A DNA stretch of 64,000 nt, taken from NCBI GenBank assembly GCA_938048455.1, contig CALIUY010000012.1, positions 154,538 to 218,537 of the forward strand. The letters run 5' to 3'. Origin of the DNA: an uncultured Desulfobacterales bacterium (GTDB taxonomy: Bacteria; Desulfobacterota; Desulfobacteria; Desulfobacterales; SpSt-501). Positions 3,944 through 35,280 of this stretch are shown here, piece by piece. The notes under the pieces are model-generated. The model was not told the DNA's origin. It did no database searches and saw nothing but the letters and a program-made list of their open reading frames with translations. A program made the position numbers and the translations under genes. Positions within the stretch are counted from its first letter, which is position 1. Each line of letters begins with the position of its first letter.

Positions 3944-6457
3944 ATGCCCAGAGCGCGGCTCGAACCCCTTCCCCGAAAGCTCACGCTCCGTTCCTGCGAC
4001 CTCTGCGGTCTGCCGGTCCGCGCCGAGGGCTTCGAGTTCGCCTCCGCCGGCCGGAGCTTTTCTTTCTGCTGCCGCGGCTGCCGCCAGGTCTTCCGCATTC
4101 TCCTTCAGGCCGCCGGCTCCCCGGATCCGGAGGCCTTCCGCAAAAGCGAGCTTTTCCGCCGCTGCCGGGAAAGCGGCATCCTGCCCTCCTCGCCGGAGCC
4201 AGCGCCGGCGGAGGCCGAACCCTTGCCGCCGACCGATGCCGGGGATTCGCCGTCCTCCGGCCTGACGCTCACGCTCGCCGTGGAGCGCATGGTGTGTCCG
4301 GCCTGCGCCTGGCTGATCGAAACCGTGCTCGCCCGCCTGCCCGGAGTTCTTTCGGCTTCCTGCGCTTTCGCCACCGACCGCTTGAAGGTGATCTACGATC
4401 CGACGAGACTCTCTCCGCGACGGATCGGCGAACTGCTGGCTTCCTACGGTTACCCCGTGCGGCCGGCCGCCGAGGAGCGACCCGCCTCGCGGACGCAGCC
4501 GGAATGGCTGCGCTTCGGGGTTGCGGCCTTTCTCGCCATGAACGTGATGATGCTCTCGGCCGCCCTTTATTTCGGCTTTTTTACCGCGCTTCCGGCCGAT
4601 TCGGTGGCGAGCCTCTCCTGGCCCATGGCCGTCATGGCGACGGTGGTGCTCGCCTGGGGCGGCAGGGACATTTTCCGGCGGGCGCTGCAGGGAGCCCGAC
4701 GCGGGCTCCCCGGCATGGATTGCCTGATCGCCGTCGGGGCGCTCAGCGCTTTCGGCTACAGCCTGGTCGAATTCGCTGCGGGGGGAATCCACCTCTATTT
4801 CGACACGGCCTGCATGCTGGTGACGCTTGCGCTGCTCGGGCGTCTGCTCGAGCGGCAGGCGCGGGATCGGGTTCTCGAAGAGATGGAGTCCTTTCTCCAT
4901 TTATCCCCCTCCAAGGTCCAGATCGTTCACGAACGATTTCCCGAAGGGCGCTATGTGTCCGCCGAAAGGCTCGCCCCGGGCGATCTGTTCCGCGTCGAGG
5001 AGGGGGAGGTGATCGCCGCCGACGGGACCGTCGTGGGCGGCGCGGGGCTGGTGGACGAGGCGATGATCACCGGGGAGCCCGGACGCCAGGCGCGCAAACC
5101 CGGCGACCCCGTGCGCAGCGGAAGCCGGCTGCACTCCGGGACGCTCACGGTGCTGGCGGAACACGTGGGGGAGGAGAGCCTGCTCGGGCGGATGATCGCC
5201 GTCGTGCAGGAGTCGCTGGCGGGCAAGACGGATCTCGAGGGCGCCGCCGACCGCATCCTGCCCTGGTTTGTGCCCGGGGTGCTGCTGCTGGCGGCCGGGA
5301 CCGCCGGCTGGGGGCTCTTTTCCGGTCAGGCGGCGGCGCAGGCACTGATGCGCGCGATCACCGTTTGCGTGATCGCCTGCCCGTGCGCTCTGGGCATCGC
5401 CGTCCCGCTGGCGCGGGCCGCGGCGATCGCCCTCGCCGTCCGCAAGGGGTTTCTCGTCCGCCGCGCGCAGGCCTTCGGAAACGCCGGCCGCATCCACACG
5501 GTGGTCTTCGACAAGACCGGCACCCTCACGGAGGGGGCCTGGAAGCTCCTCGAAATCATCCCCCTGGGCGGCCTGCCTGCCGACACGGCCCTGGCTCTCG
5601 CCGCCGGTCTCGAACAGCGCGGCGATCATCCCGTGGCGCTCGAGCTCCGGCGCGAAGCCCAGGACCGGCGTCTGCGCCCCGAGCGCGTCGCCGTCGTGCA
5701 GGCCGAGGAAAACGGGATCTCCGGCTTGTGGCGGGGCGGCGAGGTGAAGATCGGCTCGGCGGAGTTCCTGGCCGAGGAGATCTCCGCGATCCGACCGGGG
5801 ATCGAAGGCCGGGGCGGCTCCGCGGAAGGTCGCTCGCTGGTCTACCTGAGCGCAGGGGGACGGCCGGCGGCCCTCTTCGTCTTCGGCGACGAGCTGCGGC
5901 CGGGGGCCGCGGAGGCGGTCGCCGCGCTGCGACGGCGGGGGCTGGCGGTCGCCCTGGTCTCCGGGGATGGGGAGACGACGACGGCCGCCGTGGCGCGCCG
6001 GGTCGGAATCCCGGAGGCCCGCGGCGGGCTGCTTCCCGCGGACAAGGAGCGCTTCGTCGCCGATCTGCGCCGCCGCGGCCAGAGGGTTGCCGTGGTGGGG
6101 GACGGCGTGAACGACGCCCCGGCGCTTGCGCGCGCGGATCTCGCCCTGGCGCTCTTCGGCGGCGGGCCGCTCGGCCGGGAGGTGGCCGACGTGACCCTCA
6201 TGCAGCCCGATCCGCGCGGGGTTCCGGCTTTTCTCGATTTCGCCCGCAGCGTCGAGCGGACGATCCGCCGCAACCTGCTCTTGACCCTCGGCTACAACAC
6301 CGTCGGGATCCCGCTGGCGATGAGCGGTCTGCTCTCCCCCCTGGTCGCCGCCGGCGCGATGCTGTTGAGCAGTCTGAGCGTGATCGGCAGCACCTGGCTC
6401 TTCGTGCGCTCCGCTTCCCGCCCCGCTCCCGCCGGCGCCCTTCAATCCCCGAGGTAG
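3944..6457 (+). CDS. ccoI: Copper-translocating P1B-type ATPase (CcoI/FixI-type)
   Basis: 837 aa. N-terminal Cys-rich segment plus an HMA-like CPAC. Motifs TGEP, CPC (VIACPCALG), DKTGTLT and GDGVNDAPAL. Located in the cbb3 cluster. Confidence 0.9.
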   Translation: MPRARLEPLPRKLTLRSCDLCGLPVRAEGFEFASAGRSFSFCCRGCRQVFRILLQAAGSPDPEAFRKSELFRRCRESGILPSSPEPAPAEAEPLPPTDAGDSPSSGLTLTLAVERMVCPACAWLIETVLARLPGVLSASCAFATDRLKVIYDPTRLSPRRIGELLASYGYPVRPAAEERPASRTQPEWLRFGVAAFLAMNVMMLSAALYFGFFTALPADSVASLSWPMAVMATVVLAWGGRDIFRRALQGARRGLPGMDCLIAVGALSAFGYSLVEFAAGGIHLYFDTACMLVTLALLGRLLERQARDRVLEEMESFLHLSPSKVQIVHERFPEGRYVSAERLAPGDLFRVEEGEVIAADGTVVGGAGLVDEAMITGEPGRQARKPGDPVRSGSRLHSGTLTVLAEHVGEESLLGRMIAVVQESLAGKTDLEGAADRILPWFVPGVLLLAAGTAGWGLFSGQAAAQALMRAITVCVIACPCALGIAVPLARAAAIALAVRKGFLVRRAQAFGNAGRIHTVVFDKTGTLTEGAWKLLEIIPLGGLPADTALALAAGLEQRGDHPVALELRREAQDRRLRPERVAVVQAEENGISGLWRGGEVKIGSAEFLAEEISAIRPGIEGRGGSAEGRSLVYLSAGGRPAALFVFGDELRPGAAEAVAALRRRGLAVALVSGDGETTTAAVARRVGIPEARGGLLPADKERFVADLRRRGQRVAVVGDGVNDAPALARADLALALFGGGPLGREVADVTLMQPDPRGVPAFLDFARSVERTIRRNLLLTLGYNTVGIPLAMSGLLSPLVAAGAMLLSSLSVIGSTWLFVRSASRPAPAGALQSPR

Positions 6458-31056: not shown

Positions 31057-31245
31057 TCAGGATTTCTTGGATTCGTCGATCTTCTCCGGGGCTTTCTTTT
31101 CCTTCCCGTCCTCTTCGGCGGCACCCTTGAAATTGCGGATCGCCTTGCCGATCCCGGAGCCGATCTCGGGGAGTTTTCCGGCGCCGAAGATGATCAGGAT
31201 GATCACCAGGATGATGATCAACTCGGGCATGCCGATTCCGAACAT
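31057..31245 (-). CDS. tatA: Twin-arginine translocase subunit TatA/E
   Basis: 62 aa, beginning [27 protein letters not shown], followed by an amphipathic, charged tail. GGAGG lies upstream. Confidence 0.9.
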
Positions 31246-31253
31246 GGGGCCTC

Positions 31254-31655
31254 CTAAACCTCCGGTCCGGGCGGCTCGAACTCCCGCAGGAGCCGGACGA
31301 ATTCCCGGGATTTGAGATAACGGTCGAGACTGCCCTGGTAGTCGATCCACTTGCGCCAGGTGTCGAGCCAGGCCTCGTTGTGCCAGTAGCAGTCCGGGTC
31401 GCCGCGCCCCTGAAGCCGCTCGAGGTAGTCGGTGTACTCCTCTTCGCAGGCCTCGCAGAAGCGGTAGGGCAGCCGGCGGCCAAGCGATGCACCCGCCCGC
31501 GGCTCGACCTGCGCGCCGCATTTCTCGCACTTGTGCGCGCAGCCCGTGCACTGCATGGCCCGCCGCACCGCAAGGGCCTTCTGCCGCCGCTGGAGGCCCG
31601 CTTTCTTTTCGCGGCTGGACTCGAGCTTGTCGTCGAGGGAGATGATGTCGGCCAT
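31254..31655 (-). CDS. Cys-rich hypothetical protein (putative zinc-binding)
   Basis: 133 aa starting MADIISL. Motifs [12 protein letters not shown] and FCEACEEEY. Ends 8 nt before tatA. Confidence 0.55.
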
Positions 31656-31774
31656 CGCTGATCCTCGGTTCCGGCCGCCTCCCGATCCGATGGACGACCG
31701 CCCATCTTCCTTACCACCCCCCCGAAACCCTGTCAATTCGCGGGCAAGGCCGCTTTCCGGCGCGCCGCGCGCGT

Positions 31775-31803
31775 TTGACAGCGCTCGGGGAATCCCCTAT
31801 AGG
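31775..31803 (+). promoter_or_regulatory. Candidate sigma70 promoter for the MetE-like/MoxR/VWA operon
   Basis: TTGACA, 17-nt spacer, TATAGG; about 70 nt upstream of the ATG at 31873. Confidence 0.55.
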
Positions 31804-31872
31804 ACCCCCGAGGCGCGGGGCCGCCCGAGAGGAGTCCGTCCCGCGCCGCATCCTCTTCCGGCGCAGGCGGAC

Positions 31873-32967
31873 ATGGAGTCTCCCCGCTTCGAAGGCCAGG
31901 CGCTTCCCTGCCAGATCGGCAGTCTGCCCCTCAGCGATTACCGCGAGGCGGCCGAGTGGGTGGAGCGCTTCACCCCCGAGATCCCCCTCTGGGTGCAGCT
32001 GCCGCAGCTTCCCGGCGAGATGATCACCCGGCAGTTCGCGGCCGGTCTGCCGGGGTTGCGCGAGGCGGAGGGCCGGGTCTTCGTCGACACCGAGGGGGAA
32101 GACTTTCCCGGCGAGCTCGAGTCCTTCTACGCCGAGGTGCTGGAAATCGAGGAGGGCCTCCGGGATCTCGAGACCTCGCGCTTCGCCTTGCGGCCGGAGG
32201 CGGCGGGGGGCTTTTTCGAGCTTGAACGGCGCGCTTCCTCCTGGAAGACCCCCCCTTGGGCCGTGAAGGGGCAGATCATCGGCCCGGTCAGCTTCGGCAT
32301 GAGCTTCACCGACGGAGGCGGCCGCCCGATTTTTTACGAGCCCTCCCTGCGCGAGGCCCTGCTGCAACTGCTCGCGCTTCGGGCGCGCTGGCAGGTGCGA
32401 AGGCTCTCCGCCATCGCCCCCCGGGTGCTTCTCTTTTTCGACGACCCGGCGATCACGGCCTTCGGCTCTTCCCAGCACATCGGGCTTGCCCGCGAGGACA
32501 TCGTCCAGGGGCTCGCCGCCGTGATCGAAGCCGTGCATCGGGAAGGGGCGCTTGCCGGCGTGCACATCTGCGCCAATGCCGACTGGACGCTCGTTTTCGA
32601 CTCCGAGGCCGATATCGTCAGTTTCGATGCCTCCTGCTTTTTCGACCGTTTTGTGATCTACGCCGACCCCATCCGCCGCTTCCTCGCCCGGGGGGGCGTG
32701 ATCGCCTGGGGCATCGTGCCGACCCTCCACCCCGAGGATCTCGCGCGCGCGACGCTCGACGGCCTGGAGGCGCGCTTCCGGAATCAGGCCGGCCGGGTCT
32801 GCGCCCTGGGCGTTTCCGCCCCGCAGCTCCTCGCCCAGTCGCTCATCACCCCCGCCTGCGGCTTGGGGACGCTGCCCCGCGAGCTTGCCTGGAAAGGGCT
32901 TGAGCTCACGCGCGGCCTCTCCGAGCGCATCCGTGCGGGGATATCGATTCGCGAGGTGGCCACATGA
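31873..32967 (+). CDS. MetE/UROD-fold protein (cobalamin-independent methionine synthase-like), function unknown
   Basis: ATG at 31873. 364 aa. GVHICANADW and ITPACGLG resemble the His-x-Cys...Cys zinc ligands of MetE-C/UROD-fold methyltransferases. Confidence 0.55.
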   Translation: MESPRFEGQALPCQIGSLPLSDYREAAEWVERFTPEIPLWVQLPQLPGEMITRQFAAGLPGLREAEGRVFVDTEGEDFPGELESFYAEVLEIEEGLRDLETSRFALRPEAAGGFFELERRASSWKTPPWAVKGQIIGPVSFGMSFTDGGGRPIFYEPSLREALLQLLALRARWQVRRLSAIAPRVLLFFDDPAITAFGSSQHIGLAREDIVQGLAAVIEAVHREGALAGVHICANADWTLVFDSEADIVSFDASCFFDRFVIYADPIRRFLARGGVIAWGIVPTLHPEDLARATLDGLEARFRNQAGRVCALGVSAPQLLAQSLITPACGLGTLPRELAWKGLELTRGLSERIRAGISIREVAT

Positions 32968-33809
32968 ACGAGGCCGGAAATCGATTCCGGGGGGCGTCGC
33001 GCTATGTGATCGACGAGGAATTGGCGCGCATCGTAAACGTTTCGATCGCCCTCGAGATGCCGCTGTTGCTGAAAGGCGAGCCGGGGACGGGCAAGACCAT
33101 GCTCGCCCACGCGATCGCCGAGGCCCTCGAGATGCCCCTCATCGTCCTCAACGTGAAGTCGAGCATGAAGCTGGTGGACGCCCTCTACCAGTACGACACC
33201 CTGACCCGGCTGAACGACAGCCGCTTCGGAGATTCGCGGCGGGACGTGAGCCGCATCGAGGATTATATCCGCATGGGCAAGATCGGCCAGGCCTTCACCG
33301 CCGATCGACGCACCGTGTTGTTGATCGACGAGATCGACAAGGCCGACACCGACTTCCAGGACGACATGCTCGACGTCCTCGACCAGATGTCTTTCGACAT
33401 CATCGAAATCGACAAGACGATCCGCGCGCACCACCGGCCGGTGATCCTGATCACGAGCAACGCGAAAAAGGACCTCTCGGATCCCTTCCTCGGCCGCTGC
33501 AACTTCCACCACATCGCTTTTCCCGACCCCGAGATGATGCGGCGCATCGTCGCCGTGCACTTCCCGGATCTCGACCGCCGGCTTCTCGAGCAGGCGGTCG
33601 CGGCGTTCTACCGCCTGCGCCGCATCGAGGGCGTCGAAAAGCGGCCCGCGACCCGCGAGCTGTTGAACTGGATCCGCGCGCTGCAGGCGGATCCCGACTT
33701 CCGGCCGCGGGATCTCGAACGCGGCGAGCCGCCCTACCTGGGGGTGCTCTTCAAAAAAAGCCAGGATTTCCTGCGCGCGCGCGAGGCGACCGCTAGCAGG
33801 CGCTCCTGA
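32964..33809 (+). CDS. MoxR-like AAA+ ATPase
   Basis: Walker A GEPGTGKT and Walker B VLLIDEIDKA. 281 aa. ATGA overlap with the upstream gene. Confidence 0.85.
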   Translation: MNEAGNRFRGASRYVIDEELARIVNVSIALEMPLLLKGEPGTGKTMLAHAIAEALEMPLIVLNVKSSMKLVDALYQYDTLTRLNDSRFGDSRRDVSRIEDYIRMGKIGQAFTADRRTVLLIDEIDKADTDFQDDMLDVLDQMSFDIIEIDKTIRAHHRPVILITSNAKKDLSDPFLGRCNFHHIAFPDPEMMRRIVAVHFPDLDRRLLEQAVAAFYRLRRIEGVEKRPATRELLNWIRALQADPDFRPRDLERGEPPYLGVLFKKSQDFLRAREATASRRS

Positions 33810-33850
33810 GGGGACGAGGCGGACGCCACGCCGTTGCGGGAGGCCGGGGG

Positions 33851-35041
33851 GTGTTCATCTCCTTCTTTTACCGGTTGCGGGAGGCGGGGATCCCCGTCAG
33901 CCCGACCGCTTTTCTAACGCTCCACCGAGCGCTCGCGGCGGGGCTGGTCTCCTCGCTCGAGGATTTTTACGGCGCAGCGCGGAGCATCCTCGTGAAGAGC
34001 GAGCGCTGGTTTGACCGCTTCGATCAGGTCTTCGCCCGCAGCTTCCACGGAGCCGAGCTCCCCGAGCCGCGCGGTCCGGAGATCGATGCGCTCGCGCGCG
34101 CGCTCCTCGAATCGTGGCTGCAGGACCCCGGGGAGCTCGCCCGCGCGCTCGGGCTCGAGCCCGAAAGCCTGACGGGTCTTTCGCCGGATGCGCTCCTCGA
34201 GCTCTTTCGGCGGCGCCTGCGGGAGCAAACCGAAACCCACCACGGCGGCAGCCGCTGGATCGGAACGCGGGGGACCTCCCCCTTCGGTCACGCGGGCGTG
34301 CATCCCGGCGGGATGCGGGTCGGCGGCGTCTCCCGCAACCGCTCCGCCGTGCGCGTCGCCCTCGAGCGGCGCTACCGGGACTATTCCCAGGAGGGGCCGC
34401 TCACCCAGGCGCTTGTCGGCGAGGCGCTCAAGCGGTTGCGGCACCTCGTCCCCGCCGGGCCCCGCGACCGGGTGGACGTCGCGGCGACGATCCGGCGCAC
34501 GGTGCGCAACGCCGGCGAGATCGAAATCGTCTTCGCACGTGCGCTTCGCGATCGGCTGCAGGTGATTCTCGCGATCGACAACGGCGGCTGGTCCATGGAC
34601 CCCTACATCCCCGTCGTCCAGACGCTGTTCGATTACGCCCGCTCCCAGTTCAAGGATCTCAAGACCTACTTCTTCCACAACACGATCTATGCGACCCTTT
34701 GGGAGGACCCGGCGCGGTGGCGCAAGCCGCAGCCGATTGCGGACTTCGCCCGCCTCGACCCGGCGACTCGTCTGATCGTCGTGGGCGATGCGAGCATGGC
34801 GCCCTGGGAGCTCTATGCGACCGACGGGGCGATCGCGCTCGAGGAGCGCAGCGGCCAGCCTTCGATTGCTTGCTTGGAGTTCCTGGCCGAGACCTTCCGG
34901 CACCGCGCTTGGCTGAACCCGCGGCCGGCGGAGCGCTGGGCCGAGACGCGCACGATCGGGGCGATCCGCGGCTTCTTTCCCATGTTCGAGCTCACCCTGG
35001 ACGGCCTGGAGCAGGCGGTCGCGCATCTGTTGACCCCATGA
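33851..35041 (+). CDS. VWA domain protein, CoxE-like (partner of the MoxR ATPase)
   Basis: GTG start. 396 aa. The N-terminus FFYRLREAGIPVS is typical of CoxE-like/COG3825 proteins. The VWA core has an atypical MIDAS-like segment, AIDNGGWSM. Confidence 0.7.
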   Translation: MFISFFYRLREAGIPVSPTAFLTLHRALAAGLVSSLEDFYGAARSILVKSERWFDRFDQVFARSFHGAELPEPRGPEIDALARALLESWLQDPGELARALGLEPESLTGLSPDALLELFRRRLREQTETHHGGSRWIGTRGTSPFGHAGVHPGGMRVGGVSRNRSAVRVALERRYRDYSQEGPLTQALVGEALKRLRHLVPAGPRDRVDVAATIRRTVRNAGEIEIVFARALRDRLQVILAIDNGGWSMDPYIPVVQTLFDYARSQFKDLKTYFFHNTIYATLWEDPARWRKPQPIADFARLDPATRLIVVGDASMAPWELYATDGAIALEERSGQPSIACLEFLAETFRHRAWLNPRPAERWAETRTIGAIRGFFPMFELTLDGLEQAVAHLLTP

Positions 35042-35280
35042 GGCGGGCCGACCTCCGGGACCCCGAAGCGCCCCCGGGGCGGAAAGCGTTCATGGGCGCC
35101 GGCGAGCCCAAGAGCGGTGATGACCCTGGGAAGTCCCACCGGGCGGGGGAAACCATTTCCCGCGCAGTCAGCCGGGCGAAAAAGCCGTGAACCGGAGGAC
35201 CTCCAGGGGAGGGGGGTTCTGGAAGCCGCTTTTGAGGCGGGAAGTGCTGCGATGCGTGGAGAGCCCCGATGCCGCGCGGC

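Follow-up and report, generated by a model that had tools for sequence, protein, structure and literature searches.

A MesB-type methionine synthase candidate and a MoxR-VWA gene pair in a shared Desulfobacterales neighbourhood

The DNA considered here, referred to below as the window, is a stretch of 64,000 nucleotides from an uncultured Desulfobacterales bacterium (assembly GCA_938048455.1, contig CALIUY010000012.1, positions 154,538 to 218,537). It holds three consecutive genes on the same strand, which specify a candidate methionine synthase of the MesB (core-MetE) type, an AAA+ ATPase of the MoxR class and a partner protein with a VWA domain (von Willebrand factor, type A). An earlier reading of the sequence alone had proposed that the ATPase and the VWA protein serve the product of the first gene. 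The comparisons set out below make it reasonably probable that the locus instead consists of two functionally separable parts, MesB and an autonomous MoxR-VWA module, which lie in an inherited Desulfobacterales neighbourhood and probably form one transcription unit. The features of the locus are as follows.

31873-32967, + strand: gene 1, candidate MesB-type (core-MetE) methionine synthase, 364 aa, from its open reading frame (ORF), fold and residues
32964-33809, + strand: gene 2, MoxR-class AAA+ ATPase, 281 aa, from Pfam matches and Walker motifs
33851-35041, + strand: gene 3, VWA-domain partner protein, 396 aa, GTG start, with a VWA_CoxE match just below the cut-off
31775-31803, + strand: promoter-like site TTGACA-N17-TATAGG, read from the sequence, with a putative function
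31057-31245, - strand: TatA (context), from a gene call and a TatA Pfam match, divergent from gene 1
31254-31655, - strand: 133-aa Cys-rich protein (context), from a gene call, upstream of TatA and divergent from gene 1

Identical calls for genes 1-3 were obtained from an independent gene caller on the 465-kb source contig. The stop codon of gene 1 and the start codon of gene 2 share the sequence ATGA at 32964-32967, an overlap already noticed in the first reading and evident in the sequence, and GGGAGG lies 8 nt 5' of the start of gene 3. The near-consensus promoter that had been read in front of the three genes is likewise in place: TTGACA (31775-31780) and TATAGG (31798-31803) are separated by a 17-nt spacer, lie about 70 nt 5' of the gene 1 ATG and match the consensus at 10/12 positions. 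A consensus promoter scanner listed 0 sites at this position, because the -10 hexamer is without the conserved final T. The arrangement TTGACA-N17-TATA(G/C)(G/C) also stands 5' of the gene 1 orthologue in three closer relatives (L089, L091 and L005), a recurrence that makes a real promoter plausible. The gene downstream of gene 3 is on the opposite strand, so that the unit ends at gene 3; genes 1-3 are probably co-transcribed in the source organism.

Gene 1 as a candidate MesB-type methionine synthase

The placement of gene 1 rests on predicted structure because searches with sequence models came back empty: no match was found in Pfam, NCBIfam or PADLOC, and neither single-sequence nor profile searches gave a meaningful sequence match in PDB. 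The family is large: its close homologues number over 1300, and clustering at 50% leaves 1688 representatives. Its members are labelled 'methionine synthase II (cobalamin-independent)' by JGI and 'hypothetical protein' by NCBI. An AlphaFold2 (AF2) model built on 20 homologues reached a predicted local distance difference test score (pLDDT) of 88 and a predicted template modelling score (pTM) of 0.90. When this model was compared with PDB by Foldseek, the best matches were the catalytic domains of MetE (E = 5e-8), followed by uroporphyrinogen decarboxylase (UROD) and then by the Methanosarcina mazei methyltransferase 4ay7, in keeping with the MetE/UROD fold first proposed for the protein. As modelled, gene 1 encodes a single barrel of the MetE C-terminal type, without the folate-binding N-terminal domain, and its 364 aa lie below the limit of about 390 aa set for MesB.

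The residues expected of such an enzyme can be located in the sequence. H231, C233, D252 and C329 form a candidate zinc site, while S17 (in an IGS motif), E49 and D190 (in a D(D/E)P motif) form a candidate homocysteine site, and all of these positions are invariant in 75 orthologues. The likeness to the zinc site of MetE-type methyltransferases that had been seen in a His-x-Cys...Cys pattern is thereby substantiated, with H231-x-C233 and C329 among the invariant residues.

Single-domain 'core' methionine synthases (MesB and core-MetE), which are folate-independent, have been described by Price et al. (PMC7857596) and Deobald et al. (PMC7005905). The Dehalococcoides mccartyi enzyme (CbdbA481, DET0516; Deobald 2020, Price 2021) has the zinc ligands H214/C216/D235/C311, with Asp in the place of MetE's Glu, and homocysteine-binding positions 15, 69 and 177 (PMC7857596, PMC7005905). 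The equivalents in E. coli MetE are H641, C643, E665 and C726 for zinc and S433 and D599 for homocysteine; E484 is variable in MesB. S17 and D190 of gene 1 are the counterparts of MesB positions 15 and 177. Gene 1 resembles D. mccartyi MesB in its single-domain build (about 340-365 aa) and MetE catalytic fold, in its His/Cys/Asp/Cys zinc ligands, and in the Ser and Asp of the IGS and DEP motifs. The spacing of the zinc residues is +2, +19, +77 in gene 1 versus +2, +19, +76 in D. mccartyi MesB, a correspondence drawn by motif and spacing rather than by structural superposition. Gene 1 and the other MesB-like proteins encountered in this analysis also have in common that they give no PF01717 match at threshold.

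The D. mccartyi protein enters this comparison through its published residue positions, and the measure of MesB membership used by Price et al. is a phmmer score of at least 130 bits to it. Against proteins that NCBI names 'methionine synthase', from Chloroflexota, Armatimonadota and one unclassified bacterium, gene 1 scores 192-236 bits by phmmer; it differs from these nearest named relatives in sharing only 36-39% identity and in carrying about 8 inserted residues close to position 100. One relative of gene 1 has in its vicinity the genes for a corrinoid activator of the RACo type and for a pterin-binding methyltransferase, and another lies directly 5' of an S-adenosylmethionine (SAM) synthetase gene. 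Gene 1 also differs from MesB/core-MetE in not standing beside metK/ahcY or acsCD. No acs/cdh genes (for AcsC/AcsD, the Wood-Ljungdahl corrinoid iron-sulfur protein expected in a MesB host) were found among the scanned proteins of the window. Cluster P0209 fits the residue numbering of D. mccartyi MesB and has unnamed metagenome proteins as relatives.

The taxonomic setting agrees with a MesB assignment, since MesB is almost the only methionine synthase of the source order: a published survey of 25 Desulfobacterales proteomes recorded MesB in 24, MetE in 1 and MetH in 2. Taken together, fold, residues and scores indicate that the source organism most likely has its MesB-type methionine synthase in the product of gene 1, which would be a new member of the MesB/core-MetE family. 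The first impression of an uncharacterised protein therefore does not stand, given its fit to that described family (PMC7857596, PMC7005905). As the evidence stands, its family in Desulfobacterales can be re-annotated as MesB-type methionine synthase.

The MoxR-class ATPase and its VWA partner

Gene 2 was recognised as a MoxR AAA+ protein from the outset, and profile searches agree, with matches to Pfam AAA (PF00004, 54.6 bits) and AAA_5 (PF07728, 47.3 bits against a cut-off of 22 bits). Both nucleotide-binding motifs are intact, Walker A at G38-T45 (GEPGTGKT) and Walker B at V118-E123 (VLLIDE). The best PDB sequence matches are the AAA modules of midasin, not NorQ, CbbQ or RavA. Conservation is high, with 75-85% identity across Desulfobacterota loci and 46-50% to orthologues in Acinetobacter, Ralstonia, Aeromonas and Azospirillum.

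Gene 3 codes for a helical N-terminal domain and a VWA-like domain at the C-terminus, with a Gly-rich stretch (about residues 130-158) between the two, and its product is 60-72% identical across the loci described below. Its description as a VWA protein holds, and it is a borderline candidate for VWA_CoxE (PF05762), with a match that scores 26.2 bits, just under the cut-off of 26.4, and extends over residues 190-276 and profile positions 11-97 of 222. No sequence relative was found in PDB, and a single-sequence AF2 model was poor (pLDDT 51) and was not used. The Gly-rich stretch follows the pattern H-x-GG-x4-GT-x-G-x-SP-x-G-x2-G-x2-P-x3-R-x-G and is invariant from Desulfobacterota to Acinetobacter and Paracoccus; it could engage the ATPase ring.

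[quoted passage not shown] The region reads AIDNGGWSMD at residues 241-250, and the variant D243-N-G-G-W-S248, with D313 retained, is conserved in our alignment of the family (A2). Orthologues in Acinetobacter and Paracoccus read D-x-G-G-S, and from this alignment the Trp is judged to be a Desulfobacterota insertion. The canonical motif DxSxS-T-D (PMC9976466) is thus not found in its DxSxS…T…D form in gene 3, the first Ser being Gly throughout the family.

Several features are shared with established MoxR-VWA systems of the NorQ/NorD type (including CbbQ/CbbO and CoxD/CoxE). The ATPase is small, MoxR-class and has intact Walker motifs; the next gene encodes an N-terminal domain joined to a C-terminal VWA-like domain; and the pair is strictly co-inherited, with the VWA gene directly 3' of the ATPase gene in 57/57 informative loci. 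The differences are equally clear: genes 2 and 3 have no sequence-level match among the solved structures of NorQ, CbbQ, RavA and their partners; the MIDAS reads DxGG(W)S…D rather than DxSxS-T-D; and the candidate client, mesB, is neither always adjacent nor always present.

Among curated models, the nearest to gene 2 in NCBIfam is MadB_ATPase (112.7 bits against a cut-off of 475 bits). MadB (NF047784) is also the best curated model for the proteobacterial orthologues, at 113-125 bits, and VWA proteins of the gene 3 type give weak matches to MadC (NF047783). These scores lie far below the equivalog cut-offs of 475 and 600 bits, and MadC is about 100 residues longer; on such sequence comparisons MadB/MadC is a homologous sister module and not the family of genes 2 and 3.

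One further group deserves mention. PA2707 represents an orphan proteobacterial subfamily, one of seven MoxR subfamilies distinguished by Snider and Houry. It is conserved in Gammaproteobacteria beside variable genes, and is reported to lie near cysK in Pseudomonas, Azotobacter and Hahella. Variable neighbours are likewise seen at the orthologues of genes 2 and 3 found here. With this similar neighbour pattern, gene 2 may belong to the PA2707 subfamily.

Linkage of the two modules and its interpretation

Two samples were used to follow the linkage. The first took gene 1 as its anchor and comprised 80 genome loci, every one of them from metagenome-assembled genomes (MAGs) of Desulfobacterota; the second comprised 80 metagenome loci with the ATPase gene as anchor. 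In 37 of 69 informative gene 1-anchored loci the ATPase gene comes next after gene 1, and in 28 of 54 both the ATPase gene and the VWA gene come after it. Viewed from the other side, gene 1 is directly 5' of the ATPase gene in 40 of 56 ATPase-anchored loci, so that mesB and MoxR are adjacent in 54-71% of Desulfobacterota loci. The complete trio also occurs in a Desulfosudis oleivorans MAG (L012). Across these loci gene 1 is only 45-65% identical, far below the conservation of the ATPase (about 48% for gene 1 against about 80%).

Where the pair is missing beside gene 1, the next gene is oftenest a convergent one for a class A penicillin-binding protein-like product (15 loci), and otherwise assorted. 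Upstream of the ATPase gene in the 16 loci without mesB the genes vary and include, as judged by sequence, a single-stranded DNA-binding protein (SSB) gene with the 133-aa gene, and rdgB/rph-like, mutL-like or lipoprotein-like genes. The 133-aa gene stays beside the MoxR-VWA genes in three loci (L121, L130 and L146) from which mesB is missing; its product has three CxxC pairs and no match in Pfam or NCBIfam.

The conserved order can be written SSB / TatA-133aa / mesB / MoxR / VWA / … TatD. Of the 37 gene 1-anchored loci with at least 4.5 kb on each side, 27 retain TatA, 20 the ATPase gene, 19 the VWA gene and 19 the divergent 133-aa gene. The linkage of gene 1 to the ATPase gene is thus no stronger than its linkage to neighbours without an evident functional tie, such as TatA. 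When the linked and unlinked states are laid on a clustering of MesB sequences, they fall into few blocks, which points to a small number of rearrangements and not to numerous separate events, and the catalytic residues are identical in both states.

In the samples from outside Desulfobacterales the two modules are found apart. No MoxR/VWA neighbour was present at the four MesB relatives sampled there, from MAGs of Chloroflexota, Bacillota, Thermodesulfobacteriota and one organism of unknown affiliation. Full-length orthologues of both the ATPase and the VWA protein occur in Acinetobacter baumannii, Aeromonas caviae and Ralstonia, the VWA orthologue in Paracoccus and the ATPase orthologue in Azospirillum; the VWA orthologues of Acinetobacter, Aeromonas, Ralstonia and Paracoccus share 34-39% identity over 98-99% of their length. 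Their annotated neighbours are unrelated: the Acinetobacter pair stands next to trpB, the Azospirillum ATPase gene follows a cupin gene, and the Paracoccus VWA gene has gshB and an M48 peptidase gene as neighbours. Gene 1 was also searched by tblastn (E <= 1e-3) against the collection that holds these records. Its A. baumannii and Aeromonas records, which are chromosome-sized and contain the pair, gave no match, and the sole match in the collection was a distant paralogue on a Desulfosarcina plasmid.

Two side observations belong to these records. In A. baumannii (L087, 3873-7169) the orthologue pair lies directly 5' of trpB; with mesB, and with cysK near the possibly orthologous PA2707, this gives three neighbours from amino-acid biosynthesis, which may be coincidence. 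The plasmid paralogue, from Desulfosarcina ovata (L172, NZ_AP021877.1, 5983-7011), is MesB-like at 27% identity and annotated as hypothetical; it is clustered with genes for a ZIP metal transporter, a DUF1858 protein, an FprA flavoprotein and the hydroxylamine reductase Hcp, and the cluster looks like a nitrosative-stress island.

A dedicated chaperone-client system accounts for these patterns less well than a gene neighbourhood that Desulfobacterales have inherited. If the locus does hold two separable parts, each can be given a tentative mechanism. In gene 1, zinc held by His231, Cys233, Asp252 and Cys329 would activate the thiol of homocysteine, and this thiol would then be methylated by a methyl-corrinoid protein. 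For genes 2 and 3 the analogy of NorQ/NorD suggests an ATPase ring that would carry the VWA protein, the VWA domain in turn docking on a target for remodelling at the expense of ATP. That target is probably not MesB specifically, because the pair is conserved where the records show no MesB-like protein, and a dedicated link between the two is correspondingly improbable; because each partner is widespread without the other, MesB is also unlikely to be the target in general. The proposal that the pair serves gene 1 accordingly survives in part: the overlap and the frequent adjacency are real, and gene 1 is linked to MoxR/VWA genes in other Desulfobacterota genomes, but the link is missing from nearly half of the gene 1-anchored loci and from all four outside relatives, and the pair exists without gene 1.

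Several points weigh against this reading of separable parts. The adjacency of mesB and the ATPase gene persists between genomes with MesB identities as low as 45-50%, and the two genes usually lie a short way apart (13-369 bp), an operon-like pattern; no other gene stands upstream of MoxR nearly as often as mesB; and the ATGA overlap suggests translational coupling of genes 1 and 2. In addition, some genomes have two or three MesB paralogues, possibly of different function, and MesB paralogues with another function are on record.

The strongest alternative, which we nonetheless regard as unlikely, is that in Desulfobacterales alone a widespread MoxR-VWA pair has been recruited as an ATP-driven factor for the maturation or repair of MesB. 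Once the VWA protein had docked, either on MesB itself or on a complex of MesB with its corrinoid protein, the ATPase would open the barrel, so that the zinc-thiolate site is loaded or restored, or a stalled partner released. The overlap of mesB with the ATPase gene and the same-strand, closely spaced order in both samples speak for it, as does the precedent of established MoxR/VWA systems such as NorQD, which inserts metal into a neighbouring enzyme (PMC9976466). A NorQD-type pair would be expected to travel with its client across the client's lineages and to be absent where the client is absent; neither is seen here, with mesB unaccompanied at the MesB relatives sampled elsewhere and at about half of Desulfobacterota loci, its active-site residues identical all the same, and with the full-length pair present in A. 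baumannii and Aeromonas caviae, whose records show no detectable MesB homologue. The other objections are that mesB is linked no less firmly to the unrelated TatA, that the pair keeps its place by the 133-aa gene in some loci without mesB, that gene 3 is missing the first MIDAS serine, and that D. mccartyi MesB was made in active form in E. coli (PMC7005905).

A recruited maturation factor would be new, since no paper linking MoxR to methionine synthase was found in the literature; the word 'ATPase' is absent from the text of Price et al. (PMC7857596). The juxtaposition of mesB with a MoxR-VWA pair is itself undescribed, and weakly supported as functional. Were the pairing functional, this MoxR-VWA subfamily, whose conservation reaches from sulfate reducers to Acinetobacter, would gain its first client, and a core methionine synthase would have its first accessory factor, implying that a minimal enzyme of Wood-Ljungdahl anaerobes needs an ATP-driven helper. 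As matters stand, the locus draws attention to an orphan ATPase-VWA module that is very conserved and has a variant MIDAS.

A different target has also to be considered. The pair could be a general housekeeping remodeller that acts elsewhere, for example on a Tat substrate or component, in which case TatA would be the meaningful link; we consider this improbable. A mycobacterial MoxR1 is reported to assist Tat export of RipA (PMC4810496). The frequency of TatA in the full-flank loci, the position of the Azospirillum ATPase orthologue a few genes 3' of tatABC, and the roughly 80% conservation of the ATPase, which suggests a conserved target, are all compatible with a Tat function. Here, however, TatA is divergent and separated from the pair by two genes, neither the Acinetobacter nor the Paracoccus locus has TatA close by, the mycobacterial MoxR1 belongs to a different MoxR subfamily, and direct support of any kind is lacking.

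Least probable is a MoxR-VWA conflict or anti-phage system like those of multicellular prokaryotes. In its favour one could cite that the VWA region weakly resembles the SAV_2336 N-terminal domain model (28 bits, cut-off 200) and that homologues occur on cyanobacterial and actinobacterial plasmids (34-43% identity), but this reading is hard to reconcile with generic AAA matches and no specific family in PADLOC, with no third effector or sensor gene, with stable housekeeping neighbours, and with a very high sequence conservation unlike that of defence genes.

Other features of the window

The 5' region of gene 1 matched no Rfam family, SAM and B12 riboswitches included. A sub-threshold Rfam match to the Pxr small RNA (31767-31857, + strand; 28 bits against a gathering score of 80) has E = 0.006 for a 500-base search and is most likely due to chance.

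Three further candidates were set aside. A longer ORF for gene 1 (31531-32967) was rejected, every homologue aligning from the ATG at 31873. A terminator-like match at 33846-33863 overlaps the start codon of gene 3 and was not accepted as a terminator. The 50-aa ORF at 35038-35190 (+ strand), called on the source contig, has an ATG that shares the sequence ATGA with the stop codon of gene 3; the ORF is missing even from the nearest relatives and is probably spurious.

Elsewhere in the window, and unconnected with the three-gene locus, lie genes for a haem-copper oxidase subunit I (254-1633, + strand) and a copper-type P-type ATPase (3944-6457, + strand). The G+C content of the source genome is 68%.

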